Part shown: positions 1,866 through 61,587 of the stretch, in pieces | Layout: each line of letters opens with the position of its first letter | Position numbering within the stretch: position 1 is the stretch's first letter | Origin: a virus | IMG/VR virus record: IMGVR_UViG_3300017991_000049 | Span: 64,001-128,000 of that record | Reading direction: 5' to 3' (one strand) | Length of the DNA stretch: 64,000 nucleotides | Translations under genes and position numbers: made by a program | Notes under the pieces: generated by a model | The model's input: only the letters and a program-made list of their open reading frames with translations | Told to the model about the DNA's origin: nothing | Databases searched by the model: none

Positions 1866-1874
1866 CAGTAACTC

Positions 1875-3471: not shown

Positions 3472-3479
3472 GATACCTC

Positions 3480-9761: not shown

Positions 9762-9773
9762 CTTCTTCTCCCT

Positions 9774-12587: not shown

Positions 12588-12640
12588 ATTCTCACCGACA
12601 TGGTCCTATACCCTAGAGACAATTCTCCGAGCGGGCGACG

Positions 12641-13102: not shown

Positions 13103-13187
13103 TAGGGCGACCTCCTATACGCAATGACTTGTTACTACTATCTATCCCCGCCACCAGCCGGACCTTCAAGCGCCGTCCGGCAGAGCG

Positions 13188-34717: not shown

Positions 34718-37700
34718 CTATTCTAGGATCTCCACGCGCTGGCCGGAGCCTATTTCGCCGCGATGGTAAGCGGCAATTGCATCTTTCTTGGTCTTGAACA
34801 CGCGTGCTGGCGTGGGGTCGGCCTTCGCTGTAGCCGCCCACAGCCCGCCGACGTATTCCTTGCTCGGCGTGTAATGGACATCGAAATCGCCGACAGCCAG
34901 CAGGTTCTTGGACGGCATCAGCTTCTCTTTGGCCTCGTCCACGGCGTCGTCACTGGACGGCACGTGGAACTGCATGGCGTCACCATCGAAGTCAGCGCCG
35001 AAGCCGCCAACGGTCAGCGGCGGAATCTCCAGCGTGGATGACGATGTGAGCTGCGGCCAGAACGCCATCACGCCGAACCTGTGCAACACAGGTGCGCGGT
35101 TGATGACCACCGGCCGGGTCTGCATTTCGCTCTGTAGCTCACGCAGCGCCAGCGGGGTGCGCTCCTTAGCCTCCTCCATGGCCTTGATCTTGCCCATGCC
35201 ACGCCGTACGAGGCGGCGCACGATGAACGGCTGGTACAACGTCCACGCCTCGTCGATCGGCAGCCCGACCTGGTCCATGTCGAGGTTCGGGTTAGGCGTG
35301 ATCGTAGCGCGTCCAACGAGGTCGACGGTGCTGCCGAGCAGCTTCCGTTGTACGGTACCGAACTTCGGGCTACTGCCAAAGACATGCTTGAGGATGCCCT
35401 TGATGTCCTGCTCTTGGAACTCCGGCGAGATCGGGTTACCGAGGCCGGTCACGCCCTTGAACGCCTTGTACACGGCCAGGCGCTCGTCAGTGATGTCGTC
35501 GGTGAGCTTAGACAGGTCTTTCAGGTTCTTCGTGGCCTCGAAGACCTCTTTGTACAGGTAGTTTGCGTCGTTCACGAGCTGCGTGTTGGTATCGGCGAAC
35601 AGCGAGACCGGGCGGAACGTAGGCGGCAGCACGGGCACGCGGTCCATCATCCAGTCACCTGGGTGCTGGCCGTTCTCCTTCGCTGACTTGAGATACTGCA
35701 AGCGTCGGATCGCCTTGTCGCGGTAGGTCTTCTTACCGCTGTTCATCTCTGCACGTGCGCGCTCGATCTCCTTGTTGAGGTTGATATCCTCAAGCGCAGA
35801 CTTGATGCCCGCAGGTCCAGTTAGCTGCTCACGCCCAGGCAAGCCTTCGCGGCCAGCCAAGACCGATTCGAACTGCTTCTGCGTCAGCCCTAGGATGCGC
35901 CGGATAGGTTCTTCCATAACCGGGTTTGGCAGCGGCTCGTGCAGCTTGATATGGCTCCAACGGTTACCACCGTGGCCGCCGGTAAGCGACTCGTCGAACA
36001 GGCCGCCCTTGATCGGCGTCAGCTTGCTGATACGCCAGTCGACTGTCTGTGCGTTCTGGATTTCGCGATCGCCGGTGAGATCAACAGCGTCCGGACCGGT
36101 CATGGCCATGACTTGCAGCTGCGTGCCGGTCTTGACTGGGTTGATGCCTGCGCCCTTCAACTGCGCAACGAACTTCTCGAACATGAACGGGACCTTCGGC
36201 TCGGGCGGCGTATAGCCGGACATGAGCATGCGCCAGTAGTCCTCGTTCCGCTGGCCTCGGACGATGCTGGCGTCACGGATGGTCTTGTACGCACCGTGTG
36301 ACAGCAATGCATTCAGTTCGAGCATACCGACGCGCTTCGAGCCTGATGGTCCGCCCTTGGCAGGCTGACCCTCAGCGGTGTAGCCGCCACCGGCCGCGCG
36401 GCCTTGCAGCTTGGCCTCGGCTGTGTGGTGCAGCTTCATGATGAAGCGGTTGCCGGCATCGATGTCCTTGAGCGTGCGCCCGGTCTTCGGGTCGGTCAGG
36501 TCTTCGGTGTCCGGCAACCCGTGCTTGCGCAGTTCGCGTTCGGCGAACTCGCGGAGGTCTTTCAGGCTGCCGAAGTCTTGCAGCTTGTACGGCTTACCAG
36601 TCAGCGCGGCAATCTTACCTAGCTGGGCCTCGATGATCTGCGAGGGATTGCCCCGACCCATGATGCCGCCTGGGTTGAGTAGCACTTCGTATGGCACTTT
36701 GTCGGGACCGTGCGGCATGTCTTCGTCCGGGACGATGGCGGCCACAACGCCCTTATCGCCGTAACGTCCGGCGAACTTGTCACCAACTTGCGTGGGATGT
36801 AGGGACTTAACGACAACGGAGATACCCTTCTTTCCTTTGTGAACGTCGGTTACGGTTCCTGGCGAGTGGTGATCCCACATGATCGATGCGTTCGACCACG
36901 ACGCCTTGCGACGACCAAGCCGCGGACCCGTCTTACGCTCTTTCACGGCCAAAATCAACGGCTCGTCCATGTTCACCGTCTCGCCGACGCGCACTACGCC
37001 GTCGTCATCGTACTTCTCCAGCAGCTTCCGGTCGTATTCGCCCGGATAGATCGACATGAATGTGTTCTTGGACGCCTTGGTGCCTTCGGCAATATCAAGC
37101 TCGTGCTGGTACATGTGTTCCGAGCTAGCGCGCTTAGCGAACGACTCCGAGATTACGATGGCGTCTTCGAAGTTGTAGCCTTTGTACGGGAGGTACGCGA
37201 CGCGTGCATTTTTGCCAAGGGCAGTTGTCCCGCCTTGATCAGTGAAGTTTGAGGAGGCAAGAAGCTGGCCGGAGCGAACTTTGTCACCAGGTCGGACCAC
37301 AGGGCGATTGTGGACGAAGGTCTTTCTGTTGTAGGGGTGGTTGTCATAGAGCTCCTCGTAATGAACCTTCCGGTCCTTACCCCTGATCTTGATAGCGCTC
37401 GGCGTGACTTCCAGCACCGTACCGTCGACCTGGCTCTTCACCGCGCCCATGTCACTGCCGAGCAAGTCCTCGAACGATGTGCCTTCCATGCCCGGGACAC
37501 CAGACTGTACCAATGGCGCCTCTGCGTCCGCCATCGGCAGCGCTTGCGAAAGCATGCGGCTGCCCATAGAAACGCGCTGTGGGAACGCAGCGCCTTTCAA
37601 CGGGACCATGGATGCCAACGGGCCGAACGCCTCGGTCATGTCGGCTAGCTGGTAGTCGACGTCCTTGGCGGCGACGTACTTGAGCTTGCCTTTGTGCTGT

Positions 37701-39088
37701 GCGCGGACGTGCGGCTGCCCCGATTCAAGCTCTCCTGGAAAAGCGACGACAGCATCTGCAACATCCTGTGGTGACTTCCAGACGGTCTTGCCTGTCTTCG
37801 GATGAAGGAATCGCGAGTATATGCGTCCGTCAGGGCCTTTAAGCGTTCGGATTGATAGGCGGGAATCGATACCGATCTTGCCCGACTCTGGGGTGTGGAC
37901 AGGATCAATGAATCCAAGGTGGCTAGGTTGAACATTACGCGCCTCGTCGGGAACCGAATCGGACGACGGGATGCCGCCCTCGCCCATACGCGTTACGCGC
38001 ACGCGCTGGTCGTACAGTTCCGCTGGGTTGATTTCTTCTAGTGGATTGCCAAGCCCGGTCTCGAGGATAGCGCCTCGCACCATCTTTTGGAAGATGTTGG
38101 GCTGCAATCTGCTGAGATTACCGGGCAGCGTGGCCTTCCACAGCGCCTTACGCGCTTCGATCGCAGCCTTGTTGATGCGCTCGGCGAATAGATCCTCCGG
38201 CCCGACAGTGCGCTGGAACGCCATGGCGTCGCGGTCGTCGGCATCTTCCTCGCCCTTGTGTACGCGCAGTAGCTTCTGTGTCGACGACAGGATGACCTCG
38301 GGATCAACCTTAGCATAAGGTTTGCCGAGCGTACGCTTAGTGACCTCTGGGTCCAGTTCCATCTCGTCGAAAGCTGCACGGATAGCCTCGAACATCTCCT
38401 GGTCGTCGCCAGCAGTGCCTCTGCGGACCAGTTTCTTGTACAGCTTCTTGATCGTGCCTGGGTCGCTCTTCTGCGCATTCGCAACGAACAACTCGTTACC
38501 CCAGGCATCGCGTATCTGTCTGTCCGTGGCACCCAATGCTTTAAGCACCGGCATCAACGGCATGCGAGCTTGTCCGAACTGAATTCGAAAGATACCTGTC
38601 TCTGGGTCCAGGAAGTAGCGGTGACCAAATCCCCGTGCAACATTGACATGGGACTCTAACTCGCCGGACTCCTTGATACGAGTGAAGATCCCAGGTCGTA
38701 ACCGCATCTGGTGAGACAAGCTGTACTCGTTGCCGTTGAGGATGAACGTACCACGGGGAGTCATGTGCGGAATGCTGGCCAAGGTGACCCGCTTCTCGTC
38801 CACGACTTGCTGGGCGTCATCGTTTGTGCGCAGCTGGTATGTACCGCGCAAACGGCGGCCGAGCGAGCGGCCCTCTAGGACAGCGCGCTTCTCATCGGCC
38901 TTTGTGTATGTTTCTGGTCCGTCGTAGCCAACATTAGACAGGCCCAGTATGTATTTCTGGTTGGAGACGGGCGCCTGGTTCTGCGCCGCCGTAAGCGCAT
39001 TCTGGTAGACAGCGGCACGCGTGGCATTCACGTCACCGAATGCGCGGGCCTCTGGTGGCCCGCCTTGCATATCCAGCAGAGGATTCAT
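34718..39088 (-). CDS. RNA polymerase fusion protein: beta-like subunit fused to the N-terminal catalytic part of beta-prime (1456 aa)
   Basis: Beta motifs RGTFILNGNEYSLSHQMRLRPGIFTR, NFEDAIVISE and GDKFAGRYGDKGVVAAIVPDEDMPHGPDKVPYEVLLNPGGIMGRGNPSQIIEAQLGK. Beta-prime active-site motif GGFGADFDGDAMQFHVP near the C-terminus. Confidence 0.85.
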   Translation of the reverse strand: MNPLLDMQGGPPEARAFGDVNATRAAVYQNALTAAQNQAPVSNQKYILGLSNVGYDGPETYTKADEKRAVLEGRSLGRRLRGTYQLRTNDDAQQVVDEKRVTLASIPHMTPRGTFILNGNEYSLSHQMRLRPGIFTRIKESGELESHVNVARGFGHRYFLDPETGIFRIQFGQARMPLMPVLKALGATDRQIRDAWGNELFVANAQKSDPGTIKKLYKKLVRRGTAGDDQEMFEAIRAAFDEMELDPEVTKRTLGKPYAKVDPEVILSSTQKLLRVHKGEEDADDRDAMAFQRTVGPEDLFAERINKAAIEARKALWKATLPGNLSRLQPNIFQKMVRGAILETGLGNPLEEINPAELYDQRVRVTRMGEGGIPSSDSVPDEARNVQPSHLGFIDPVHTPESGKIGIDSRLSIRTLKGPDGRIYSRFLHPKTGKTVWKSPQDVADAVVAFPGELESGQPHVRAQHKGKLKYVAAKDVDYQLADMTEAFGPLASMVPLKGAAFPQRVSMGSRMLSQALPMADAEAPLVQSGVPGMEGTSFEDLLGSDMGAVKSQVDGTVLEVTPSAIKIRGKDRKVHYEELYDNHPYNRKTFVHNRPVVRPGDKVRSGQLLASSNFTDQGGTTALGKNARVAYLPYKGYNFEDAIVISESFAKRASSEHMYQHELDIAEGTKASKNTFMSIYPGEYDRKLLEKYDDDGVVRVGETVNMDEPLILAVKERKTGPRLGRRKASWSNASIMWDHHSPGTVTDVHKGKKGISVVVKSLHPTQVGDKFAGRYGDKGVVAAIVPDEDMPHGPDKVPYEVLLNPGGIMGRGNPSQIIEAQLGKIAALTGKPYKLQDFGSLKDLREFAERELRKHGLPDTEDLTDPKTGRTLKDIDAGNRFIMKLHHTAEAKLQGRAAGGGYTAEGQPAKGGPSGSKRVGMLELNALLSHGAYKTIRDASIVRGQRNEDYWRMLMSGYTPPEPKVPFMFEKFVAQLKGAGINPVKTGTQLQVMAMTGPDAVDLTGDREIQNAQTVDWRISKLTPIKGGLFDESLTGGHGGNRWSHIKLHEPLPNPVMEEPIRRILGLTQKQFESVLAGREGLPGREQLTGPAGIKSALEDINLNKEIERARAEMNSGKKTYRDKAIRRLQYLKSAKENGQHPGDWMMDRVPVLPPTFRPVSLFADTNTQLVNDANYLYKEVFEATKNLKDLSKLTDDITDERLAVYKAFKGVTGLGNPISPEFQEQDIKGILKHVFGSSPKFGTVQRKLLGSTVDLVGRATITPNPNLDMDQVGLPIDEAWTLYQPFIVRRLVRRGMGKIKAMEEAKERTPLALRELQSEMQTRPVVINRAPVLHRFGVMAFWPQLTSSSTLEIPPLTVGGFGADFDGDAMQFHVPSSDDAVDEAKEKLMPSKNLLAVGDFDVHYTPSKEYVGGLWAATAKADPTPARVFKTKKDAIAAYHRGEIGSGQRVEILE

Positions 39089-43524: not shown

Positions 43525-44670
43525 TTACAACATGCCGGTGATACCACGAATGGCTCCGGCGAGCAGACCAGCCCGTTGAATGCCCTTCTGCACTGGCGGG
43601 GTCAGTCCAAGGAACTTGCCGGCCAACGATCCAAGGTAACCGTAACCGTAGCCAAGGCCGGCATTGACGGCGACGGACGCTACGTCACGCGGCGACACCA
43701 AGTTTGAGCCGCGCATAGCGCCTGCTGCAGCAGGAACGCCAGCAGCAATCGCCTTCTCTGGATTGTCTAGGAACGGGTCGCGCATTACAACCTCTCCCCA
43801 CTCATTCGTGCTGAATTTCGGCAGCATGCCGCCGGAGAGGTCCGCACACTTCGTGAATGCGTCTTCGTCGATCGTGACGTTGAGTTCGCTCGTCAGCCTG
43901 TCTAGCACGTCGGCGAGTACGCTCGATGCGCCCTTCACGCGCTCGTAGTGCTGTGGGTCTGGGATCGGCCCGTACTGACCTGTGCGCACATCGTTGGCGC
44001 CGAACTCGTAACCAGCGGCGCCCGGCTTGGGCAGGTTCTCTGTGCCACGCGGATAGGCCCACTGCTTAGTCTTGCCGTCCCACTTGCCGCCAGCAGTCAA
44101 CCGGGCGACATTGGCACCAGGAGCCATGTCAGCGGCAGGGACGTTGGGTGCGTTGGCATACGCAGGGCCACCCTGTAGCGGCTGCTGTGTCCACAGGCCA
44201 CTAATACCCTGATTGCGCAACGCAGGCAGACCATGGATGAACCCAGGCACAGCTGCGCCGCCGAGCGCCCCGATCGCGCCGAACGCGGTTGGCGTGCGCT
44301 TGTTGAACCACTGCGGGAACAGCTTGTTGAGAATCCACCCGCTGCCATAGCCTAGTCCGCCAGTCAGCGCGCCGGTCAGCAGCATCGACGTGAGCGGATT
44401 GGGTCCACCGATGTACTCCTGCACCTTGCCGTGCGCATCGCCCATCTGCTTGAAACTGGGAATCATCCCGCGGAGCTTGTCCATCCAGGTAGGATCCGGA
44501 GCAGCGGCCCACTTCACCATGACCGGCCCGACCTCTTCGGTGTCGAGCACCCAGCCAGCGTCGTGATTCTGCTCGCCCTGCGTCAGCTCGTACGCTGCGC
44601 CAGCGTATTTCACGTACAGATCCTTCACGCGGAAGGGTACAGACGCCCAGTTTTGGTTGCTGTCAGTCAT
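43525..44670 (-). CDS. Gly-rich virion or membrane-associated protein (381 aa)
   Basis: Gly-zipper segments. Its start codon lies 3 nt downstream of the conserved AT-rich palindromic motif. Confidence 0.5.
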   Translation of the reverse strand: MTDSNQNWASVPFRVKDLYVKYAGAAYELTQGEQNHDAGWVLDTEEVGPVMVKWAAAPDPTWMDKLRGMIPSFKQMGDAHGKVQEYIGGPNPLTSMLLTGALTGGLGYGSGWILNKLFPQWFNKRTPTAFGAIGALGGAAVPGFIHGLPALRNQGISGLWTQQPLQGGPAYANAPNVPAADMAPGANVARLTAGGKWDGKTKQWAYPRGTENLPKPGAAGYEFGANDVRTGQYGPIPDPQHYERVKGASSVLADVLDRLTSELNVTIDEDAFTKCADLSGGMLPKFSTNEWGEVVMRDPFLDNPEKAIAAGVPAAAGAMRGSNLVSPRDVASVAVNAGLGYGYGYLGSLAGKFLGLTPPVQKGIQRAGLLAGAIRGITGML

Positions 44671-44724: not shown

Positions 44725-45399
44725 CTATGTAGGCGTTCGGCGCTTCAACCACCGCTCATAATCTCGAGGACGGTCGAAGTCCTCTGTCTCGTCGACAATC
44801 TCCGTGAAGCATGCAGGTGTAGGTGCCGGCGATCTACGGTACTGAAATGGCAGTCCGTGCAGTTGGCAATATGTCTCCCACGCCTTGCATTTCCGCAGCC
44901 GCCCTTCGTCGAGCAGTCTCTTCACAGCCATCGCCGCGTGCATAAGCTCCGGACACCGGCTCGCTGGAAACGTCAGCCCAAATATCTCACCGCAGTGTTT
45001 ACCTGTTACGGCATTGGCGCCGGCGTGGCCAAACCACTCTATCTCATTCGAGTTTATTCCTAGGATGGTTTCCACAGCTGCGTCGGTGCAGCATACGTCG
45101 CCAAACACTATGATCGTTCTATCTTCAACGTCCCAAATCGGCAAGGACGACAACAGCTTCGTGCTGTCGTCGTAGTCTGCGTCGGCCGGTAATACGTACA
45201 ACTCTGCGCCCGGCACGGCCATATGTTGGCACTCCTGGCGCACTACAACGTAAGGCTGACAGCCCGGCGCACGCGCCAAAAACTGCCGCACCGTTCTGTG
45301 CACAAGCGGCTCGCCGTTCACCGGCACCCATTGCTTCTGTATACCCAGATACCCTCTCCAGCGAATTTGCGTCCCGGCACATGGTAATATCAGTCGCAT
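44725..45399 (-). CDS. Nucleotidyltransferase-fold protein (224 aa; sugar-phosphate nucleotidyltransferase-like)
   Basis: N-terminal LILPCAGTQIRW resembles the (L/I)xPAAGxGxR loop of sugar nucleotidyltransferases and MobA-like enzymes. Confidence 0.45.
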   Translation of the reverse strand: MRLILPCAGTQIRWRGYLGIQKQWVPVNGEPLVHRTVRQFLARAPGCQPYVVVRQECQHMAVPGAELYVLPADADYDDSTKLLSSLPIWDVEDRTIIVFGDVCCTDAAVETILGINSNEIEWFGHAGANAVTGKHCGEIFGLTFPASRCPELMHAAMAVKRLLDEGRLRKCKAWETYCQLHGLPFQYRRSPAPTPACFTEIVDETEDFDRPRDYERWLKRRTPT

Positions 45400-45403
45400 G
45401 GCA

Positions 45404-48400
45404 CTAGTAGTCCTCGTGCATCGCGATCAACGCTGGTGCTCTCCAGGCCCCTGAGGGGTACTGTTCTTGCGAGCGGATTCTTGCAACGCGGCCAATATAT
45501 GCTGCAGGGTCCGCGAGCAGCTGCGCGCGCAGCTCGTCTGACAGGCCCGTGCCGACTTCACCAGCGCGCGGACCTCCCGGCGCAAGCGCGTAGCCGAAAC
45601 CTCCAGCACCTGTTCCTTGGTATTTGCCTCCTCCTGGGAAGACGTCGGTGATGTGGACATCGGATTCCTCCAGTCGCTTTGCCTTGGTGGGTTTGCCTAC
45701 AGGTGGTTGGAATACGATACCTTCACGCGTTAATGGGTGCTTGCCTGCGATAATGCTGTGCCACAGTTGCTTAGCCTCTTCGGGGTCGGTTGTCTCCTCT
45801 GCTAGCTGAAACTTGTCTGGCGGCAGATACGGTAGGATTTCCTCGATCATCTTGCGTCGTTCTGCATAAGGCGTCACGTTTGGATCTATCGGCGTCTTAC
45901 CCAGCTGCTGGATATCGAAGAGCATGTTCTTTATGTCGAGCCCTTGCTCGCGCTGTTTGTCTCTGGAGTGTTCGACGGTTGCGTGGAGGAGCCCGCCAAG
46001 ACGTTGCGGCTCCACAGCTCGAAGGACTTGCGCAGCTTCGTCAGCCTGAGCTGCCACGCCTGCTCCTTCTTCCACTCCTGCATCGTCACTGGTAGGCCTG
46101 GAAACGTCGTCAGGCCGTATCTTTTCGGCATAGAGTTCTCCTTTCAGAACTGACCCCTCGTACTTCTTCGGAATATCCAGTTGTGGCCGCCCGCCGAACA
46201 TGCGCTCGGTATGGACGATAGGATGCCCAGTCCGCTTGGCAGTCCTGTAGCTAAGCACTTCTGCGCCACCGCGCATCAACTTGACGAGCGATGACGCGCC
46301 ATCCAACTTGGCCGACACTGACGTGCCTTCCTTCATCTGTTCAATGTAAGGCTCCACGTCTTCTGGCGCCAGTTTCTTATAGCGCACTTTGTCGTAAGGC
46401 ACTGCTTTCTTCGGCGTGACGTTGATCATCAGCCAGTCACGATCGCCCCATTTCTCGGGCTTCATCAGCACGTAGCGTTCTGGCGTGCCAGTTGTGGCTA
46501 CCGTGTACTCGATCTTTGTGGGCGTGGCCTTGGTGATCATCACCTTTCCGCGCCGCTCCTGCCGAACCTCACCCTTGCCGTAGCCGGAGCCGATACTGCC
46601 CTGAAACGCGCCATACTGGTGCGAATGCACAGGTTGCTGCTTCATGAACTTCTTCTCGCCCGGAGCGGGGATGTGTGTCGGCTTCGTCGCCCAGGAGAGC
46701 AAGCCGGTCTCCGGCGTGCCGAGCCTGTAGTCGAAGTGCTCGCCGGCGCGCTGTGCGCGGTGTCGCTGCACGAATAGATCAACAAGCTCATCGGTATCGA
46801 GCTTCGACGGGTCGCCGAAGTCGGTTCGATCTGGAATGCCACGCGCGGCCGTCTTATCCATGGCCATCTTGGAGATGTCGTCCACACCCTTGGACGTGAT
46901 GCCGACGATCTGCATGAGCTGGCGCAGCAGCACATCCTTCTCTCTAGGATTCTCCATCAACGGCTTGTGAACTGCGTCAAGGATTTGCTCATGCTCACCC
47001 TTGTGCTGCCGGAAGAACCAGTTGAGCGCCTTCTCCGCCTCCTGCGGTGTAGACACATGCTTTCCAGTAGCCTGGACGTATTCGCGCTTGACCGTCGCCA
47101 GATAGGCTTTCAGCTCCTCTGGCGTCGTCGCGTACTCCCATGTCTTCCGTGGAACCGTGCGCGTCTTCCGGCTGCCCCAGAAGGTCTTGCCCATGTCTTG
47201 AACACGCGGCCGATCATCGTAGTGCAACACCCGCGGATGGCGGGTGCCCGGATTCTGCGCCGGACCAGGCGCACGCAGCCGTGCGTGTGTCAGCTCGTGC
47301 TCAATATTGCTTGTGACGTCATCGGTCATCGCGTGGCCTGGCGCTGCTGCCCACAAAGTCTCGTCGTTGGGGTCGTATACGCCCTTCACGCCGAAATTGG
47401 CAGCCTGGCCCGGCAACGGCGGCAGATACTCTCTGTCGACCGTGGACACGGTTGTCTCTGTGTCCAGCTCTGCCGGATCCCAGCGGTGGATCCCGTACGG
47501 GTCATTGTCGTTGGCCATCGACTCTTGGGCGCGCCGCACGGCCTCGTCCAGCCCGCCAGGCGCGTCCTTGTAATACTTGTCCAACTGGTCGCGCAGCGTC
47601 AGCTTGTGCTCTTTGACGTCAGCGCCGCCCGTCGGATCGTACGGGCCGAAATTGCTGCGCCTGCGTTCCATCTCCTGACGCACGGCGTCCCAGTAGACTT
47701 TGCCGGCCAACCCGAGCGCGCCACCGACGCCTGCGCCCATCAAGCCGCTCTCCAAGACACGCCGCCAAGTGGGGCGCTCATCGTCCGGATACGGGTCGTC
47801 TACGAATTCGGAAAGTGCGCTTATCCCCCCGCCGAGGGCTGCGCCTCCTAAGCCCCATTTTGCCCAGCTATTCAACGCGGTCTTCTCAAACCATTCACGA
47901 AAACCTACATGTTTTCGTGAATCGTCAGCGGCCATTTTCAGTGGGCCTGGCAGCTTCGCGGGCGTACGGACGCCACCGAGGACGCCAGCAGCGAATTCTG
48001 CTGGGCCCTGCGTGCCGCGCTGGACCTCATGTACGAATCGACGGACTGGCCCTTTCTGCCCTAAATGCGCCATCTGCTGCTCGACACGGGCCTGGTTCTC
48101 CGCCTGGGAGTAGACGTTACCGATCTGTGCAGCAGCGCCGCCTTGTAGCTGATCGTAGTGTTGCCGGTTCCGGTAGCCCCACTGCTTAGCCAGGCGCGAC
48201 TTCTCGCCTTGCATCAGCATGTCACGGCCAGGGCCTTGCCCAAAACGGCGACCAGCGAGCGCTAGCTGGCGATTGTGATCGAACGCCGGCTGTGTCATCC
48301 GTACGGTACGGATGAGGTTCTTGTAATTGGGATTCTGCGCCAGGAACAGCTGATTCTCGGCAGACTGCCCGGCCAGCATCGCAGCCATGGCCGGGCTTGC

Positions 48401-49456
48401 GCCAGAGCGCGCCATCATCTGCCGCCACTGGCTTGGGTCGATGTACGACAATTCGCCGGCCTGGATCTTGTCGAGCCAGCGCTTGGCTTCTGAGTTCTCG
48501 TTGATAGCCCCCGACTGTGCAGCACGCGCCGTAGCGAGCACCAGGTTGCCTGTGTGGCTCTTGGCTGCCTGCTGTGTCAGGATCTCGTTCTGGGCGTTCA
48601 ACTCTGCCAGACTGGCACCGCCCTCTGGGATAGTCTCTCCGGCGGCGTCCATCGCAGCGCCCATGATGCCGCCGCGCTGCTGGAAATAGCGCCCGACCCG
48701 GATGTTCTTGTCGGCCTGATCGAAGTTGTAATGCGCATTTGGTGCGATCTTATCGAGCGCCTGGAACATGCCGGCCATGTCGCTGGTGTCGTACCCTTCC
48801 GGGCCGAGCGCGTCACGGACGGCGGACGTGGCGCCGAGAATCGGCGTTAGGTCTTTGATCTGGGTCTCAGTATCTGTACCTGTGCCGACCCAGCCACGCT
48901 TGGTGGCTTCCCTGTACGCGCCGCCGATTTCCTGCAGAGACATACCACGATGCTTCATCGGGTCGCTGAGGATGTCCTCGGCCATCTCCTCGGCCATCTG
49001 GACAGCCTTCTCCGCGGTCATGTCGTCATCGTACTTGTGCGCATCAGCGATAGCCGAAGCCAACGAGGCCACCGAACCCTCGCCGCCGTGCATGGCATCC
49101 CACCAGTTGGGTGCCCAGCGCATCAGATACGGCGAGATCTCGCTCAGATTGTCCCGGATGGTCTCAGCCTGCTGCTGCTTGCCCTCGTCCCAGTCTTGGC
49201 CCAGCATCGTGCTGTAGCCTTTGAGGATCTTGATGGGCGCCTTGTCGCGAGACGTGGCAGACCGCATGATCTCGGTCTGCATATCACGCATCTCCTGCTC
49301 ACGCAGGTGATCCATGATATTGCCACCGGGCTTCCACGGACCCAGCTCGAAGTCAGGGTTGACGCTCTTGACCCACTGACGGAGCTTGGGTTCGCCCAGT
49401 GTGTCCCAGATGGACTGGATGAAGCCTTGAGAGTCAGCTAGCGCGTATTTGTCCAT
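45404..49456 (-). CDS. LigD-like 3-prime phosphoesterase plus ATP-dependent DNA ligase with a ~880-aa N-terminal extension bearing an HExxH motif (1350 aa)
   Basis: Phosphoesterase-domain motifs HFDYRL...GLLSWATKP...YGAFQGSIGSGYGKGEV. Ligase motif I SAKLDG, then VLKGELYA, EGIVFQ and the OB-domain tail VGTGLSDELRAQL...IGRVARIRSQEQYPSGAWRAPALIAMHEDY. The N-terminal region carries IEHELTH. Confidence 0.75.
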   Translation of the reverse strand: MDKYALADSQGFIQSIWDTLGEPKLRQWVKSVNPDFELGPWKPGGNIMDHLREQEMRDMQTEIMRSATSRDKAPIKILKGYSTMLGQDWDEGKQQQAETIRDNLSEISPYLMRWAPNWWDAMHGGEGSVASLASAIADAHKYDDDMTAEKAVQMAEEMAEDILSDPMKHRGMSLQEIGGAYREATKRGWVGTGTDTETQIKDLTPILGATSAVRDALGPEGYDTSDMAGMFQALDKIAPNAHYNFDQADKNIRVGRYFQQRGGIMGAAMDAAGETIPEGGASLAELNAQNEILTQQAAKSHTGNLVLATARAAQSGAINENSEAKRWLDKIQAGELSYIDPSQWRQMMARSGASPAMAAMLAGQSAENQLFLAQNPNYKNLIRTVRMTQPAFDHNRQLALAGRRFGQGPGRDMLMQGEKSRLAKQWGYRNRQHYDQLQGGAAAQIGNVYSQAENQARVEQQMAHLGQKGPVRRFVHEVQRGTQGPAEFAAGVLGGVRTPAKLPGPLKMAADDSRKHVGFREWFEKTALNSWAKWGLGGAALGGGISALSEFVDDPYPDDERPTWRRVLESGLMGAGVGGALGLAGKVYWDAVRQEMERRRSNFGPYDPTGGADVKEHKLTLRDQLDKYYKDAPGGLDEAVRRAQESMANDNDPYGIHRWDPAELDTETTVSTVDREYLPPLPGQAANFGVKGVYDPNDETLWAAAPGHAMTDDVTSNIEHELTHARLRAPGPAQNPGTRHPRVLHYDDRPRVQDMGKTFWGSRKTRTVPRKTWEYATTPEELKAYLATVKREYVQATGKHVSTPQEAEKALNWFFRQHKGEHEQILDAVHKPLMENPREKDVLLRQLMQIVGITSKGVDDISKMAMDKTAARGIPDRTDFGDPSKLDTDELVDLFVQRHRAQRAGEHFDYRLGTPETGLLSWATKPTHIPAPGEKKFMKQQPVHSHQYGAFQGSIGSGYGKGEVRQERRGKVMITKATPTKIEYTVATTGTPERYVLMKPEKWGDRDWLMINVTPKKAVPYDKVRYKKLAPEDVEPYIEQMKEGTSVSAKLDGASSLVKLMRGGAEVLSYRTAKRTGHPIVHTERMFGGRPQLDIPKKYEGSVLKGELYAEKIRPDDVSRPTSDDAGVEEGAGVAAQADEAAQVLRAVEPQRLGGLLHATVEHSRDKQREQGLDIKNMLFDIQQLGKTPIDPNVTPYAERRKMIEEILPYLPPDKFQLAEETTDPEEAKQLWHSIIAGKHPLTREGIVFQPPVGKPTKAKRLEESDVHITDVFPGGGKYQGTGAGGFGYALAPGGPRAGEVGTGLSDELRAQLLADPAAYIGRVARIRSQEQYPSGAWRAPALIAMHEDY

Positions 49457-49608: not shown

Positions 49609-50277
49609 TTACTTCGTGTACTCCTCATCGCTGCCCAGCCCGTCGATCTGGTAGTGGAAGTCGATGTACTTGGCTAGCACGTCCTCCTGCGGGCCTTCGG
49701 CTGACGCGTTGCGGTAGAACCGCAGATCGAGGTTGCTGGATATTGTCTCATTGGCCGGCGGGGCAATCTCTGCGAAGGTGGCGATCTGTAGCATATCGCC
49801 CGACGTGTATGTGAAGACGCCCTGATTACCTTGTAGGGTGGCAATGGTTGTCCAGCTGCCCGGTACTGCTGCGCCGTTGTTGTACCACCGATAGTCCGCC
49901 TTCCAGATCGGTTTGACCACGTCCGACTGGATGTAGTGGACATGCAGCCTGATCGCAGTATCCAGCTTCTTCTGGTGCTGCATCTGCATGGTCAGGTAGA
50001 CTATTTCCGCCTCGTCGTCATACGGGAACAGCAGACCGTTATTGGTGAAGTCGTAGTCGGGCTTGCTGTTCTGGCCCTGCTTGTCGCGTGTAAGCGGAAC
50101 GGAGAAGTCATCCCAGGCAACACCGTCATCGCCGCCGCCGAGTGTATGCAGACGGTCGGCGATGTAGCGCCAGTTCAGGTGACTGTGGTGACCGCCGATC
50201 ATATCGGGGCTCGTCCACAGTCCCTTATATAGGCTAGGCGGAATGTACTTTCCCATTTGCCTCCTCCTTGAGGTCAA
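49609..50277 (-). CDS. Hypothetical protein (222 aa)
   Basis: Complete ORF. No Ku-like features seen. Confidence 0.45.
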   Translation of the reverse strand: MTSRRRQMGKYIPPSLYKGLWTSPDMIGGHHSHLNWRYIADRLHTLGGGDDGVAWDDFSVPLTRDKQGQNSKPDYDFTNNGLLFPYDDEAEIVYLTMQMQHQKKLDTAIRLHVHYIQSDVVKPIWKADYRWYNNGAAVPGSWTTIATLQGNQGVFTYTSGDMLQIATFAEIAPPANETISSNLDLRFYRNASAEGPQEDVLAKYIDFHYQIDGLGSDEEYTK

Positions 50278-51607
50278 ACTGCTCCAGTAGCTTCTCGAAC
50301 TCGTCCTCCATCGACTTCAAGGTCTCCTCGCGCTCGTCCTCGTTCTTGACCTCCGGCGGCACAAAGCGGATGGTCGTCGAGCGCTGTAGCACGAGAATAC
50401 CTGGCGCATCGTCGCTGTCGTCCTGCTTCTCAGCCGCAGCCTTCTTCATCTTAAAGGTTTGCGTGGAGACCGGTCTAGTCTGGCTGCCGTCCTTCAACCA
50501 CTCCTTGAACTGCTGCATGGTCAACGGGGTTATTTTTCCTAGGCCTTTCCAGCCTTTTTCGTAATTGGCAAGGTAGGCGTCTTTTGCTTCGCGCAGGCTC
50601 GAAAAGCCGAGCATGACCTTGTGCTCGTCGAACCGCTTGGTCTCGGGGTCAATCTGATCGACGACAAAAGCCAGTTCGGTATCCGGGGATCCGCCAAGGA
50701 ATACGTCGACGGAATCGCCGTCAGCGTCGGTTGTGCGTCTGATGTAACCATAGTGGTGCTGCAACGCCGGCCAGGCCGGATCGCGCTTGTCTCCCTTCTT
50801 CGTCTCGATCGAGATGTCTAGGCCGTGCATACGGACATGGCCCTTACGGTAGTTGCCAGCCTCGGCCTGGGCGGGCGATGGCTGCGCAGCCTTGCGCGCT
50901 GCGCGGGCAATCGACTGTCCGAGCGTGACTGTGTCGGCGGCTTCCTTCGGCTTGCCGTATCGCTCACAGATCTCACACATAGTGACGTCGGGGTACGGCT
51001 CGTCCTTCTTGAACTTCCTGCCGCAGCCCGGGCACTTGTCGGCGGCCACCTTCAAGCTCTGGACGCCGGGCTTGTCCCACGGTAGCTGCGCCTTTTGGGC
51101 CTTTCTTGCGCCATTTGTGCCATTAGCCTTGCTGGTCTCATTGGCGCCCAGCACGCCGCTCTTACGCACGGCGAAGGTCACATGGAACTCCATCGCCTTG
51201 TCGGTCTTCGGGTGCACTGGCAGCGGCGTGAGCCCGTAGGTCTGCCGCAGCTTCTTGAGTTCTGGGCTCTTGACCTCGAACACCCAGCAGCGGTTCATCT
51301 CTTCCCAACCGGCCGGGTTGAAGTCCTTGATCTTGCCCAGGGAGTAGCCGAACTCGTGTCCGCGTTCGGTAATTTTGTCAGGGCCGCCAAACGACTCGAT
51401 TTCCTCGGGCCGCATGACGGAGACGTGCGCGTTGTAGCGCAGTTCCGATTCGGACATCGGCAGTTCGGTGCCGGGCTCGTTCAGCGCATCGAACGCACCG
51501 CGGCCAATAGCATTAGGTACGGACATCAAGAGCCAGCCCGACTGTGAGAGGTAGAGCTTGCCCTTGAGTGGCGCAGCCGCCGTCTTGAACAATTCGAGTA
51601 CGGACAT
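50234..51607 (-). CDS. Multidomain protein: 2H phosphoesterase-like, Zn ribbon and family-I inorganic-pyrophosphatase-like domains (457 aa)
   Basis: Two HxT/S motifs (NAHVSVM, EFHVTFA). CPGCGRK...CEIC zinc ribbon. HHYGYIRRTTDADGDSVDVFL closely matches PPase NYGYIPHTLSLDGDPVDVLV. Confidence 0.65.
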   Translation of the reverse strand: MSVLELFKTAAAPLKGKLYLSQSGWLLMSVPNAIGRGAFDALNEPGTELPMSESELRYNAHVSVMRPEEIESFGGPDKITERGHEFGYSLGKIKDFNPAGWEEMNRCWVFEVKSPELKKLRQTYGLTPLPVHPKTDKAMEFHVTFAVRKSGVLGANETSKANGTNGARKAQKAQLPWDKPGVQSLKVAADKCPGCGRKFKKDEPYPDVTMCEICERYGKPKEAADTVTLGQSIARAARKAAQPSPAQAEAGNYRKGHVRMHGLDISIETKKGDKRDPAWPALQHHYGYIRRTTDADGDSVDVFLGGSPDTELAFVVDQIDPETKRFDEHKVMLGFSSLREAKDAYLANYEKGWKGLGKITPLTMQQFKEWLKDGSQTRPVSTQTFKMKKAAAEKQDDSDDAPGILVLQRSTTIRFVPPEVKNEDEREETLKSMEDEFEKLLEQFDLKEEANGKVHSA

Positions 51608-51609
51608 AA

Positions 51610-52518
51610 CTATCGCTCTGTATGGTTTGCGCCGGTCCCGTGATCGCGGATGAACGTCTCAAGTGCCTGGATGCGCTCCTCGTGTGCTTTCCCCTGATTT
51701 CCGGTAAAGCGGTCAGCAGACTTGGCATCGATGGTGCTAAGCAGCGTGTCGTATGATTTACGCAGGCTGCCGACCATTTGCTCTAGCTTTCCGCGCGCTT
51801 CGGCCCCCGCGATGAATTGTGGCCAACGGCGATCCTGCTGCTTCTCCGAAGCGCGCATGCGCGCAGAGAGTTGCGCACGGTCTGCGCGGCAATCGGCAAT
51901 ATCTTCGATTAACGCGTCCGTTGTCCTATGCAGCTTCTCGATCTCGAAGTGGTGGTCGGCCAGGCGGTCTTCTTGTCGATTGTGCCGTTCCGCGCTGACG
52001 TCGTCCAGCATACGCATCTCGCGCTGTAGCTGTGTATCGAGCCCGGCAATCTCCATCTTGCGCGTGTCGTCAATCAGGCGCATCTCGCGTTGCAGCATAG
52101 TATCGAGCTGCACGATCTCGCCCTCCATGAATTCGGCTTTCACCTGGGCGACAGCCACCTGCGTGGCCTGGGACATGCCCCAGGTGACGACGGCGATGAC
52201 AACCACCCAGATCAGTGAACAGAGTGCGACAGCGACGCCCCAGTTGATCTTTCCGCGCTCAGAAGATTTCTCGGCCTGTCTGTCGAGTCGCTGGTGTAGT
52301 TCAGAAGTGCGCTCGTCCTGGCGCCGAGCCGCTGACGCCATCATTTCGCGCGTCTCGGCGAAGCCTGTCTTGACCGTGTCAGTCAATGACGCAACTGCCT
52401 GGGACATGTTTTGCATGTCCCGTTCCAGCCCAGTGACGCGTCCTTCGAGCTTCTGCTGTTGCTGCTGTTGCTGCTCTAGCTCCGTGGTCATCGCTGCGCC
52501 TCCGTGCTGTTGATCCAT
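51610..52518 (-). CDS. Coiled-coil membrane-anchored protein with a poly-Q tract (~302 aa)
   Basis: The ORF-track start is GTG. The ATG at 52516-52518 is preceded by AGGTGAG. Single transmembrane helix (VAVALCSLIWVVVIAVVTW) and the internal repeat LDTMLQREMRLIDD / LDTQLQREMRMLDD. Confidence 0.5.
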   Translation of the reverse strand: MDQQHGGAAMTTELEQQQQQQQKLEGRVTGLERDMQNMSQAVASLTDTVKTGFAETREMMASAARRQDERTSELHQRLDRQAEKSSERGKINWGVAVALCSLIWVVVIAVVTWGMSQATQVAVAQVKAEFMEGEIVQLDTMLQREMRLIDDTRKMEIAGLDTQLQREMRMLDDVSAERHNRQEDRLADHHFEIEKLHRTTDALIEDIADCRADRAQLSARMRASEKQQDRRWPQFIAGAEARGKLEQMVGSLRKSYDTLLSTIDAKSADRFTGNQGKAHEERIQALETFIRDHGTGANHTER

Positions 52519-52533
52519 GATTCTCACCTACTT

Positions 52534-53662: not shown

Positions 53663-54319
53663 TTATGCGCTGGCAACCTGCGCTGCGCGAGCCTCTTCGA
53701 TGACCTGGTAGATCTCGTCGTGCAGGTGTTCTCTTGTCTTGTCATAGCCTTCATCGTCCACACAGTCTACCACATGCCAGCGGCGGTAGGTACGGGCCTG
53801 TTCCAGGTAAACGTCCCGGACGCGTGCCATATAGGATAGAGAGTCTTGATGAAGGTCTTTCGTGTCGTCGCGGGTATGGGTACGCCGATACGACGCCTCA
53901 GCAGTCAGATCCAGCAGAATGACCAGATCCGGCCTGGGCAGGCCAAATATCTCGTACTCGGTCTGCTCGATACGGTAGATCAGCGCAGCGCGGCTGTCCA
54001 CGGGCTCGTTGGCAGCCTGATGCGCGATGTTGGACGGCACGTAGCGGTCGCAAATGACCGTAAGGCCGCCGGCCAGCGCAGCTTGCAGGTCGGGCAAAGC
54101 CTCGTAGCGATTGATCGCGTACAGCATCGCGACCAAGAACGGGTCGTTCTGGCCTAGTTCGCCAAACTCTCCACGGAGGTAGCGCCGCACGTGCGGCCCG
54201 AAGACCGACGTGTCATAGGTTGGAAAGCTGAACAACTCAGATCCGTTCAGCCTTTGGTGTAGCATCCGTGCCTGTGTCGCTTTACCGCTTCCATCAATTC
54301 CTTCAAACGCAATCAGCAT
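53663..54319 (-). CDS. tmk: Thymidylate kinase (dTMP kinase)
   Basis: P-loop MLIAFEGIDGSGKATQ and a DRY-like DRYVPS motif. Start re-picked at the ATG of MLIAFEG (54317-54319). Confidence 0.8.
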   Translation of the reverse strand: MLIAFEGIDGSGKATQARMLHQRLNGSELFSFPTYDTSVFGPHVRRYLRGEFGELGQNDPFLVAMLYAINRYEALPDLQAALAGGLTVICDRYVPSNIAHQAANEPVDSRAALIYRIEQTEYEIFGLPRPDLVILLDLTAEASYRRTHTRDDTKDLHQDSLSYMARVRDVYLEQARTYRRWHVVDCVDDEGYDKTREHLHDEIYQVIEEARAAQVASA

Positions 54320-54527
54320 GCTCTGGCTCCAAACGAATAGCGGCAAGCGGCACATCCAGGATGACCGTACCGTCCTTCAATTCAAAATCTTGGTGCGTGC
54401 GCGCTTCCAGCGTCAGGCAGCCCATGTTGATAGGCTCGATGACTTCGTTAGCGCCAAACACCATGGTGGTCATGTCGCCATCCGGCATGACAGCACCTAC
54501 GTGACAGACGTAGTTGAAGGCGAATCG
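54303..54527 (-). CDS. Small hypothetical protein (~75 aa; internal start)
   Basis: MRFAFNYVCHVGAVMPDGD... fills the gap between the thymidylate kinase and the phosphatase. The longer ORF-track version would overlap the phosphatase gene. Confidence 0.3.
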   Translation of the reverse strand, partial: RFAFNYVCHVGAVMPDGDMTTMVFGANEVIEPINMGCLTLEARTHQDFELKDGTVILDVPLAAIRLEPEHADCV

Positions 54528-55180
54528 CATTGTTCTTCCTCCTCTTCCGTGGGTTCGAAGCTTCCGGTGTAGTTCACCGTTTGTAACTCCATAACCCCCC
54601 GAAAGACACGAATCACATTCACGCATCCAGGGTCCTGGTCGATCTCCCTTGCGCGGTGCATGGGCAACGCCATGAGATGCGCTAGAACCGCCCGGTTCAC
54701 ACATCTGTGGGAGATAACTACCACACGCTGGTCCGGATGCTTAATGGCGAGCTTCTCGATGAAGGCCAGGGCTCGACGGCAAATCTGGGAGAGGTTCTCT
54801 CCATCAGGAAAGCCGTATGTCCCTGGGTCCGCCAAGAAGGCGCCATAGTTCTCGTCGTCTTCCCGCATTATACGGTCCCACGACAAACCTTCCCAGCTCC
54901 CCATGTCGGCTTCTACGAGGGACGTGCAGAAAGTCACAGGTCCATCCACCGACGTGTTGACGATGCGAGCCGTCTGAACCGCCCGACCCAGGGGGCTCGC
55001 GTAAATCGCATCAATGCCCTTACCCTCGAAATACTCGGCCAGGGCGTTAGCCTGCGCAACTCCACGATCGGACAGGCAGATGCCAGTGGCCATCCGCTGT
55101 CCCATCAGGATAGGGTAGTTCTGATCATTGTTGCTCGTGGCACAATGACGCATCAGATAAATGATGCCCGAACCGTCCAT
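54497..55180 (-). CDS. Histidine phosphatase superfamily protein (phosphoglycerate-mutase-like, 227 aa)
   Basis: IYLMRHCAT is an RHG-type catalytic motif. The second His lies in VVVISHRCV. Confidence 0.6.
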   Translation of the reverse strand: MDGSGIIYLMRHCATSNNDQNYPILMGQRMATGICLSDRGVAQANALAEYFEGKGIDAIYASPLGRAVQTARIVNTSVDGPVTFCTSLVEADMGSWEGLSWDRIMREDDENYGAFLADPGTYGFPDGENLSQICRRALAFIEKLAIKHPDQRVVVISHRCVNRAVLAHLMALPMHRAREIDQDPGCVNVIRVFRGVMELQTVNYTGSFEPTEEEEEQCDSPSTTSVT

Positions 55181-59757: not shown

Positions 59758-60303
59758 TTATGCCGGTCCTTCGCGGGATAGCTTTTCTGCAAAGCGCCTC
59801 AGCCTGCTTTTTCCAGTTCTGTTTACCCACGGAAATGTCCGATCTGGGACGGGCAGATTTAGAAACGCGCATAGCGGCTCCCATCCGTCGCCGCCGCATA
59901 CGTCGTACACCAGCAGGTCGTCCTGCCGTTCCGCAAAGTGCTTGTAGACAGCTGCTGTGTGCTCGTCCCATTTTCGTCTATGCAGCGCAGGACTGCCTCC
60001 AAATTGCGACATGCGGCTGATGATCCACGGGTCCATGTCTCGGACAGTCAGGATGAACTTGCTGCCCGGGTACGCCGCGTCCAGCTCGCGGAACATGTAG
60101 TTGATCGGCGAGTCACAGAAAGCATTGTACTCCTCGTCGAGAGAGTGCAAAGGCGGCTTTCCGTGTCGCTTGTTCTGCCTGGCAACCGTCTTGACCTTGC
60201 GAGCCCAGTGCAGGCAATTGAAGCCGAGGATGTTCAAGGCCTTCTGCAGCGATGCAGTGCCGGTCTTGTTCATCCCTATACCAAGTATGAGTGATTTGGC
60301 CAC
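59758..60303 (-). CDS. Sulfotransferase-family protein, paralog 1 (181 aa; GTG start)
   Basis: PAPS 5-prime-phosphosulfate-loop-like GIGMNKTGTAS and 3-prime-phosphate motif TVRDMDPWIISRM. The GTG at 60301-60303 overlaps the upstream TAG as TAGTG, giving exactly the same length as the paralog. Confidence 0.6.
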   Translation of the reverse strand: MAKSLILGIGMNKTGTASLQKALNILGFNCLHWARKVKTVARQNKRHGKPPLHSLDEEYNAFCDSPINYMFRELDAAYPGSKFILTVRDMDPWIISRMSQFGGSPALHRRKWDEHTAAVYKHFAERQDDLLVYDVCGGDGWEPLCAFLNLPVPDRTFPWVNRTGKSRLRRFAEKLSREGPA

Positions 60304-61584: not shown

Positions 61585-61587
61585 ACG

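Follow-up and report, generated by a model that had tools for sequence, protein, structure and literature searches.

A phage protein joining a LigD-type phosphoesterase and an ATP-dependent DNA ligase to a homologue of tape-measure-position tail proteins: a possible virion-delivered end-healing and sealing enzyme

Introduction

Why would a phage carry an enzyme for repairing nucleic acid ends at the end of a polypeptide more than twice as long as the enzyme itself? The question is raised by an open reading frame (ORF) of 1350 amino acids (aa) at positions 45404-49456 of a 64,000-nucleotide stretch of viral DNA (positions 64,001 to 128,000 of IMG/VR record IMGVR_UViG_3300017991_000049), which is referred to here, at its full length, as the window. 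A first-pass annotation made from the sequence alone had read the C-terminal part as a LigD-like phosphoesterase followed by an ATP-dependent ligase, preceded by an extension of ~880 aa with an HExxH motif, and had proposed a virion-delivered or membrane-associated enzyme that protects or circularizes the incoming genome. The analysis described here assigns the C-terminal part to a LigD-type 3′-phosphoesterase (PE) and a minimal ATP-dependent DNA ligase, and finds the N-terminal domain to be homologous to proteins that occupy the tape measure position of phage tail modules. The function that is proposed from these two results, namely end healing and sealing by an enzyme that travels in the virion, is put forward tentatively and is weighed below against its alternatives.

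Architecture of the 1350-residue protein

The protein is encoded by a single ORF that runs from ATG to stop on the minus strand, as do nearly all genes of the window, which has a G+C content of ~60%. An identical protein (P0001) is found on a 150,722-bp metagenomic contig (ENA ERZ27256790 k141_165457), and the window corresponds, in reverse complement, to ~71.6-135.6 kb of it. The motifs that had drawn attention to the ORF (HFDYRL, SWATKP, YGAFQGSIGSGYGKG, KLDG, GELY, EGIVFQ and IEHELTH) are all present in its translation. Alignment with six relatives of 959-1107 aa (P0002-P0007) divides the protein into the following parts, given with the evidence for each:

45404-49456, minus strand: the whole ORF, 1350 aa, comprising the N-domain, a variable insert, the PE, the ligase nucleotidyltransferase (NTase) and an OB domain (ORF listing; identical protein P0001)
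47957-49456, minus strand: N-domain, aa 1-500, all-alpha (AlphaFold2 (AF2) model; 520 representatives; hhalign against the tail-slot family)
46862-47923, minus strand: insert in the inter-domain linker, aa 512-865, with no detectable homologue (alignment to relatives)
47687-47866, minus strand: two Gly-zipper-like hydrophobic segments, aa 531-590 (visible in the sequence; low-confidence model)
47285-47299, minus strand: HExxH motif, H720-E-L-T-H724, judged to be a chance motif (observed against expected count)
46427-46819, minus strand: LigD-type PE, aa ~880-1010 (Pfam LigD_N; alignment to 3n9b, 2lj6 and 3p4h)
45662-46399, minus strand: ligase NTase, aa ~1020-1265 (phrog_114; DNA_ligase_A_M in homologues; PDB profile matches)
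45407-45661, minus strand: OB domain with C-terminal motif VI, aa 1266-1350 (DNA_ligase_OB_2 in relatives; alignment to the PBCV-1 OB domain)

Because the alignment separates a conserved N-domain from a variable linker slot, the N-terminal ~880 aa are not the single unit that they had first been taken for: they consist of a conserved domain of ~500 aa followed by a slot that holds different inserts in different relatives. The slot holds 354 aa in the query and almost nothing in P0003, P0005 and P0006, whilst in P0002, P0004 and P0007 it is filled by a HAD phosphatase of ~120 aa with a DLDGT motif and weak matches to HAD_PNKP or LNS2. The order of N-domain and PE-ligase cassette is repeated in these six other cluster representatives, and the cassette is also found in eight further N-domain representatives, some of them fragments or arranged otherwise. 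GC and GC3 (G+C at third codon positions) are even along the ORF, except for a lower GC3 in the ligase part. Since the architecture recurs on many independent contigs and the composition is uniform, an assembly error joining two genes, which the first-pass annotation had allowed for, can be ruled out.

The phosphoesterase and ligase domains

With the Pfam family LigD_N there is a match at aa 897-982 (E 4.5e-7), whose 30.4 bits fall just short of the gathering score of 31.1 bits, and the query alone matches the solved LigD-type PE domains 3p4h, 3n9b and 2lj6 directly. A profile built from 43 sequences of the family matches the solved PE domains with E-values from 4.7e-21 (3p4h) to 3e-16 (3n9b). 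Residues H899, H907, D909, R911, H944 and Y948 align to H42, H48, D50, R52, H84 and Y88 of the Pseudomonas LigD PE, which we take from the LigD literature to be the essential residues. Amongst 127 aligned cassette homologues, on which all conservation counts given here are based, these six positions are kept in 121-125, the remainder being mostly alignment gaps. The segment of aa ~880-1010 is thus assigned as a genuine LigD-type 3′-phosphoesterase with a full set of catalytic residues.

The ligase module follows directly. The PHROG family phrog_114 (ATP-dependent DNA ligase) matches aa 1009-1349 (E 5.5e-18), and the nucleotidyltransferase motifs can be read in order: motif I (K1050-L-D-G), Ia (R1071), III (E1107), IIIa (D1181), IV (E1245-G) and V (K1258-x-K1260). 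K1050, D1052, G1053, R1071, E1107, E1245, G1246 and K1258 are found in all 127 homologues and K1260 in 126 of them. The C-terminal R1339-A-P...H-E-D-Y, in which P1341 and H1347 are invariant and R1339 is conserved in >=90%, is taken as motif VI from a comparison with the PBCV-1 ligase. When the ligase half of the 43-sequence profile was compared with solved structures, the only PDB matches were ATP-dependent DNA ligases (E 4e-7 to 3e-5), including archaeal cores, a Lig E-type enzyme and the PBCV-1 OB domain (E 3e-5), with no RNA ligase or capping enzyme among the PDB matches of the profile. An identity of the NTase as an mRNA capping enzyme or RNA ligase, with which motifs are shared, was considered and rejected, the profile matching ATP-dependent DNA ligases only.

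The Pfam models are less sensitive here. DNA_ligase_A_M matches relatives (E 6.6e-9) and misses the query itself, which is probably explained by an acidic low-complexity insert at aa ~1110-1150 (window ~46007-46129), between motifs III and IIIa, that is shared by some relatives and absent from P0004-P0006. DNA_ligase_OB_2 matches weakly (aa 1274-1343 of the query, E 0.14; a relative, E 0.0025) and is present in four of seven close relatives. The OB domain is the sole confident part of the C-terminal AF2 model; the model of the catalytic half, built on a seven-sequence alignment, reaches a pLDDT of 45 overall and 22-68 across the PE region. Given the Pfam, PHROG and family-profile E-values, the PE and ligase signals lie far beyond chance, and aa ~1020-1350 are accordingly read as a minimal ATP-dependent DNA-ligase module made up of NTase and OB domains. 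The reading of a LigD phosphoesterase joined to an ATP-dependent ligase with an OB tail is hence borne out: neither the phosphoesterase His/Asp residues nor the motif I lysine, whose absence the first-pass annotation had named as the refuting case, is missing from the alignments.

The N-domain and its paralogue in the tail module

The N-domain is modelled by AF2 as all-alpha, with a pLDDT >90 over aa ~10-495. No Pfam or PHROG family was found for it, in the target or in distant N-domain proteins, and its fold finds no match among solved structures in the PDB. A profile search of 1.84 billion cluster representatives recovered 520 proteins at E<=1e-3, of which 46 match at E<=1e-30; some copies of the domain stand by themselves (~500-600 aa), and others are contained in proteins of 700-2000 aa. 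The best viral fold match is annotated as a tape measure protein (Foldseek E 2.7e-6, TM-score 0.10). A paralogue of the domain lies within the window itself:

6111-8228, minus strand: N-domain paralogue of 705 aa in the tape measure position (hmmsearch E 1.3e-35 over aa 33-632)

In three related loci (L006-L008), genes map one-to-one onto window genes from 12641 down to 366, and the slot of 6111-8228 is always held by an N-domain protein (P0170, P0176 and P0184, 1136-1499 aa). The tail and baseplate module ends at 366-1865 with a Baseplate_J/phrog_6 baseplate wedge gene, and in L008 a weak Phage_sheath_1 gene is found upstream. Across loci the slot protein ranges from 705 to 1499 aa and has long coiled-coil-like tails, whilst its neighbours are constant in size. 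When the enzyme-fused group was set against 15 tail-slot proteins in hhalign, the probability was 100% and the E-value 2.5e-48 over 480 columns, covering N-domain aa 15-500; the homology between the N-domain and the tail-slot proteins is therefore firm at the level of profile comparison. The target gene itself does not lie between the tail tube/chaperone and baseplate genes; it is ~33 kb away, and its paralogue holds that slot.

From gene position, length variation and the annotation of the fold match, we infer that the tail-slot protein is a tape measure protein. Curated Pfam and PHROG tape-measure models match neither the target nor the distant N-domain proteins nor 6111-8228, and PDB sequence searches with three tail-module proteins returned no match. 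Pfam and PHROG annotation is missing for most genes of the window, and hardly any gene of the tail module and its flanks (366-13841) has such a match, 366-1865 (phrog_6) being the exception; because of this the tail-module assignment rests on few markers. Within the baseplate cluster, 2731-3666 (minus strand) has a weak Sigma70_r3 match (E 0.0021) and its homologues in L007 and L009 have faint Sigma70_r4 and r3 matches, so that a sigma-like factor of the phage may be encoded in the midst of the tail genes.

Distribution of the cassette and its fusion partners

A search with a cassette-only profile found 173 proteins at E<=1e-3, on metagenomic phage-like contigs, and tblastn found no PE-plus-ligase cassette in 50,697 GenBank phage records. 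Only the ligase half finds relatives in the GenBank phages, namely annotated replicative ATP-dependent ligases such as KVP40 gp30 (24-26% identity), and searches with the whole protein, the DNA of the region, the insert, the tail-slot paralogue and a 937-aa tail-module protein found no relatives there. At least 42 of the 127 aligned cassettes stand alone (~445-480 aa), one of them beside SNF2 helicase and RNase HII genes; others are fused to InPase, 2H-SAK, NUDIX, AAA_18, LysM or GNAT domains. A similar set of partners is found from the side of the N-domain: among 46 large N-domain proteins InPase is present in eight, 2H-SAK in six and LigD_N in six, and such proteins also carry GNAT, HAD, NUDIX, DUF5661, an AAA_18 P-loop or a Hint intein. 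2H-SAK is fused to nine cassette homologues and eight N-domain proteins. Three proteins illustrate the range of arrangements:

P0129: N-domain, HAD-like segment (DLDGT motif visible), GNAT, PE and ligase
P0132 (1961 aa): AAA_18 P-loop, N-domain, HAD_PNKP, PE, and a Hint intein where the ligase is expected
P0161: 2H-SAK, NUDIX, InPase and N-domain; the cassette model matches too

The intein-like Hint/Vint domain of P0132 occupies aa ~1319-1395, right downstream of the PE. Two of these partners, 2H-SAK and InPase, are also encoded near the target, whose conserved neighbours are:

50234-51607, minus strand: 2H-SAK and InPase protein of 457 aa, next gene but one upstream (Pfam InPase E 1.9e-47; 2H-SAK E 5.4e-9)
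44725-45399, minus strand: downstream gene for 224 aa, phrog_33187, with a weak MobA-like NTP-transferase match (42% identical homologue in the same position in locus L001)
43525-44670, minus strand: downstream conserved Gly-zipper protein of 381 aa (homologues follow cassette or N-domain genes in L001, L003 and L005)

Loci L001-L003 share the order of the 2H-SAK/InPase gene, the downstream genes for 224 and 381 aa and a fused RNA polymerase gene. On the 214-kb contig of L005 the PE-ligase is followed by InPase and N-domain in one 803-aa protein and then by the Gly-zipper homologue. On the evidence of these fusions, the N-domain, InPase, 2H-SAK and PE-ligase are functionally tied together. The linker between 2H-SAK and InPase in 50234-51607 holds a zinc-ribbon-like CPGCG...CEIC.

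The wider neighbourhood encodes an RNA polymerase of the multisubunit type. In a 1456-aa fusion protein at 34718-39088 (minus strand), the C-terminal portion of beta runs on into the N-terminal portion of beta′ (Rpb2_3, Rpb2_6, Rpb1_1 and Rpb1_2), and the C-terminal part of beta′ is a separate 629-aa protein at 31794-33683 (minus strand; Rpb1_5); fusions of 1456-1458 aa are likewise present in L001-L003. The fusion may belong to the mReC lineage (PMC7481178), and the phage lineage bears a resemblance to the Caudovirales with RNA polymerase genes that Weinheimer and Aylward 2020 (PMC7481178) described. No enrichment of sigma-70-type promoters or intrinsic terminators was found over 39-54 kb, which fits transcription by the phage's own polymerase, and no tRNA genes were found in the window. 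The regions 53663-55180 and 59758-63056 (both minus strand) encode thymidylate kinase, a His_Phos_1 phosphatase, two Sulfotransfer_4 paralogues and GT2 and GT25 glycosyltransferases; a His_Phos_1 gene is also found upstream of the cassette in L001, L003 and L005, and the DNA just outside the window adds Cpn10, a cold-shock protein and more genes of sugar metabolism. A weak Pfam Bcl-2 match at 51610-52527 (minus strand; E 0.0016, below the gathering score) is probably spurious. In the same genome, ~8 kb beyond window coordinate 1, a gene with TROVE/Ro60 and vWA_Ro60 domains is found (L009, 19836-21500). TROVE/Ro60 is a component of RNA quality control and repair.

The linker insert, the HExxH motif and Ku

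The first-pass annotation had pointed to IEHELTH as a possible metallopeptidase motif and to Gly-zipper segments as a possible means of membrane association, and neither suggestion has held up. An HExxH motif is observed once in the window proteome, where 0.72 are expected; no Pfam peptidase family matches the query, and the insert has no Pfam match of any kind. The region of the motif is modelled as non-helical with a pLDDT <50 (AF2, no alignment support). The insert is missing from all of the relatives P0002-P0007 and resembles its flanks in composition; no homologue of it was found in a large protein database, the GenBank phages or the PDB, in a search of uncertain sensitivity, as the database search missed the parent protein too. 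A zincin metallopeptidase was consequently rejected on the grounds of a motif at chance frequency, the lack of a peptidase family, the homologue-less insert and the low-confidence non-helical model, and aa 512-865 are treated as an addition in an insertion-tolerant linker rather than as a peptidase. The Gly-rich hydrophobic segments (aa 531-552 and 568-590) have Kyte-Doolittle maxima of only 1.05 and 1.25, marginal for transmembrane helices, and make a weak case for membrane association.

A short motif, [LI]K[MV]AA, is seen at module boundaries: at aa 506 and 860 of the target, at aa 185 of 50234-51607 (where the 2H-SAK/InPase linker begins LKVAAD, as at the target junction), at aa 51 of 63053-63886, and in P0002, P0007, P0138 and P0168. 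Its enrichment is weak (three in the window against 0.46 expected; five in the family set against 1.5), and a role as a prohead-protease cleavage motif at the junctions, for which it was considered, was not adopted; it may mark the linkers or serve as a site of processing.

The earlier statement that no Ku homologue lies nearby is confirmed: none was found among the scanned ORFs of the window, nor in precomputed Pfam matches ~10 kb past each end, a span of ~84 kb of the 150.7-kb contig in which one window scan left out ORF 62238-63056 and three plus-strand ORFs. A LigD primase-polymerase (POL) domain has no Pfam match in the query at E<=1, the remainder of the protein being N-domain and insert. 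With no Ku in ~84 kb and no LigD polymerase domain, it is unlikely that the 1350-aa protein plays a classical role in non-homologous end joining (NHEJ).

Proposed role and alternative explanations

The reading that we favour, while giving it a little less than an even chance, is that the protein is a virion-associated and probably ejected end-healing and sealing enzyme made up of a carrier and a catalytic cassette. The N-domain, as a paralogue of the tail-slot protein, would be the carrier that brings the protein into the virion, the simplest means being co-assembly with the tail-internal protein, and the whole would be ejected into the cell at infection. Once there, the PE would convert blocked 3′ ends (3′-phosphates or 3′-terminal ribonucleotides) to a ligatable 3′-OH, and the ligase would seal the break through lysyl-AMP on K1050. 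The 2H domain of the neighbouring 2H-SAK/InPase protein could open 2′,3′-cyclic phosphates, whilst its InPase could remove the pyrophosphate released by ligase adenylylation and so pull that step forward. Carrier, cassette and 2H-SAK/InPase would then form a domain-shuffled toolkit that acts early in infection and mends breaks made by nucleases, be it in the nucleic acid of the phage or of its host. Iyer et al. 2017 (PMC5512222) predicted packaging and injection for the InPase and 2H domains of the polyvalent type and suggested that the InPase may remove pyrophosphate that acts as an inhibitor. The virion-delivered half of the original proposal thus gains indirect support from the tail-slot homology and from the linkage to InPase and 2H-SAK, whilst its membrane-associated half does not. 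Incorporation into the virion, ejection, joint action with the product of the neighbouring gene and the nature of the substrate are all points that we infer. As to the substrate, a ligase of the DNA type points to duplex DNA with a nick, which may bear a 3′ ribonucleotide as in the case of LigD, and the cassette beside SNF2 and RNase HII favours duplex DNA as well; the 2H, NUDIX, P-loop and HAD partners and the TROVE/Ro60 gene favour RNA or ribo-terminated ends.

Several observations weigh against delivery by the virion. The gene lies ~33 kb from the tail module, between nucleotide-metabolism and RNA polymerase genes, and a folded PE-ligase of ~50 kDa is hard to fit inside a tail tube. The label 'tape measure' comes from position, variable length and one fold match with a TM-score of 0.10, and, as the AF2 model of the catalytic half is poor, the PE and NTase folds are backed by sequence only. 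The frequent stand-alone cassettes, with one of them next to SNF2 and RNase HII, would suit an ordinary cytoplasmic replication or repair ligase. A broader form of the proposal, which we regard as possible and rather doubtful, makes the N-domain a general cargo-loading module derived from the tape-measure-position protein, its enzyme-bearing paralogues being loaded into the tail and ejected before the DNA; the enzymes so loaded would be PE-ligase, 2H, InPase, NUDIX, HAD-PNKP, a kinase-like P-loop and GNAT.

Slightly less probable again is that the protein is an ordinary intracellular DNA ligase of replication or repair, made after infection and never packaged, which seals nicks or Okazaki fragments once the PE has cleaned the 3′ ends, with the N-domain in some different role, for instance as a scaffold or in contacts between proteins. 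Its membership of the ATP-dependent DNA ligase family, the replicative function of the nearest annotated phage relatives (KVP40 gp30), the company that the stand-alone cassettes keep, the adjoining thymidylate kinase and other nucleotide-metabolism genes and the lack of a second ligase among the scanned ORFs of the window all speak for this explanation, although the full scan covers 64 kb of the 150.7-kb genome, in which a separate replicative ligase may exist. What it leaves unexplained is the fusion to a paralogue of a tail-module protein and the repeated fusions with InPase, 2H-SAK, NUDIX and HAD-PNKP. A further alternative is that the protein repairs RNA, in the manner of T4 Pnkp/Rnl or bacterial Pnkp-Hen1, and reseals tRNA or other RNA that anticodon nucleases of the host or toxin RNases have severed: 2H-SAK would open 2′,3′-cyclic phosphates, the PE (HAD in relatives) would remove the phosphate and the ligase would seal the RNA. 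The fusions of 2H-SAK to cassette homologues and N-domain proteins, the union of AAA_18 P-loop, HAD_PNKP, PE and ligase in P0132, the HAD_PNKP-like insert of P0002, P0004 and P0007, matches of Pfam RNA_ligase to three cassette homologues and the TROVE/Ro60 protein of the same genome are in keeping with it. We nonetheless consider RNA repair unlikely: the ligase has a DNA-ligase architecture (NTase with C-terminal OB domain and motif VI) and no RNA ligase or capping enzyme among its PDB matches, the query has no 5′-kinase or P-loop, and characterized PE domains act on DNA primer-templates. Far less credible than any of these is the combination closest to the first-pass annotation, in which an HExxH metallopeptidase processes the protein itself and an NHEJ-like LigD, perhaps together with a Ku from another part of the genome, circularizes or protects the incoming DNA. 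The motif is indeed present at aa 720-724, Iyer et al. 2017 (PMC5512222) proposed zincin peptidases as modules with which polyvalent proteins process themselves, and the Ku scan spans part of the contig; but the chance frequency of the motif, the missing peptidase family, the non-helical low-confidence model, the absence of the insert from relatives and the lack of a LigD polymerase domain and of Ku in ~84 kb all count against it.

Implications

The families of the catalytic parts are known ones: the phosphoesterase falls in the LigD PE superfamily and the ligase among the ATP-dependent DNA ligases. Three features appear to be undescribed in the literature searched: that phages have PE and ligase as a compact module, that this cassette is joined to a homologue of the tail proteins in the tape measure position, and that it is systematically associated with 2H-SAK and InPase. 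Activities known to be injected by phages include RNA polymerase, ADP-ribosyltransferase and anti-restriction proteins. If the carrier directs virion loading, ligation and end healing would join them, a new packaging handle would have been identified, and the lineage would deliver a ready-made break-repair enzyme at the time when its genome is most exposed. Should the N-domain prove to be a general cargo-loading module, it would represent a hitherto unrecognized way for large uncultured phages to inject their tools for nucleic-acid repair and counter-defence, and the protein would be the first phage-delivered DNA-type ligase. Whatever the route of delivery, the cassette is widespread in metagenomic phage-like contigs and undetected in the GenBank phage records, the N-domain defines a family of 520 representatives with a confident predicted fold that matches no solved structure, and the direct fusion of 2H-SAK and InPase to a ligase cassette bears on the role of the 'polyvalent' domains.

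Comparison with known systems

The closest catalytic counterparts are LigD and the stand-alone archaeal PE proteins (3n9b, 2lj6, 3p4h and 3p43), with which the phage protein shares the His/His/Asp/Arg/His/Tyr active site of the PE; like LigD, it carries PE and ATP-dependent ligase in one polypeptide. It differs from LigD in having no detected primase-polymerase domain or Ku partner, in the compactness of the cassette (~450 aa, PE then ligase, with a minimal NTase and OB), and in its phage setting and fusion to a tail-protein-like domain. With minimal ATP-dependent DNA ligases (PBCV-1, the Lig E-type 4d05 and the archaeal 4eq5 and 2cfm) it shares the NTase and OB core and motifs I-VI, at the remote level of similarity given above (E 4e-7 to 3e-5); unlike them, the phage module carries an acidic insert, itself variable, from motif III to IIIa, and its N-terminus is always joined to a PE. 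The heal-then-seal logic is that of T4 Pnkp with Rnl1 and of bacterial Pnkp/Hen1, and HAD_PNKP phosphatase and P-loop modules are found in relatives of the phage protein, whereas the sealer of the query is of the DNA-ligase type with an OB domain, it has no kinase and its 3′ healing is assigned to the PE.

The large multidomain build, the host-conflict enzymes carried by relatives (InPase, 2H, NUDIX and GNAT) and the predicted virion delivery are shared with the polyvalent proteins, whose 2H domains are reported never to have been seen with RNA ligases (Iyer et al. 2017; PMC5512222). In the phage proteins described here, 2H domains are fused to a cassette of PE and ATP-dependent DNA-type ligase, the carrier is a homologue of a tail-module protein rather than MuF, the portal or DarA-N, and no MPTase was detected in the query. 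A further parallel is offered by enzyme-bearing tape measure proteins. Tape measure proteins may carry muralytic domains, as in T5 Pb2 and the tape measure proteins of mycobacteriophages, and thus provide a mostly helical, tail-internal and ejected vehicle for an enzyme. No curated tape-measure family matches the protein and its gene stands outside the tail module, in contrast to these; but its N-domain is homologous to proteins in the tape measure position, and the cargo that it carries would act on nucleic acid ends instead of the cell wall.

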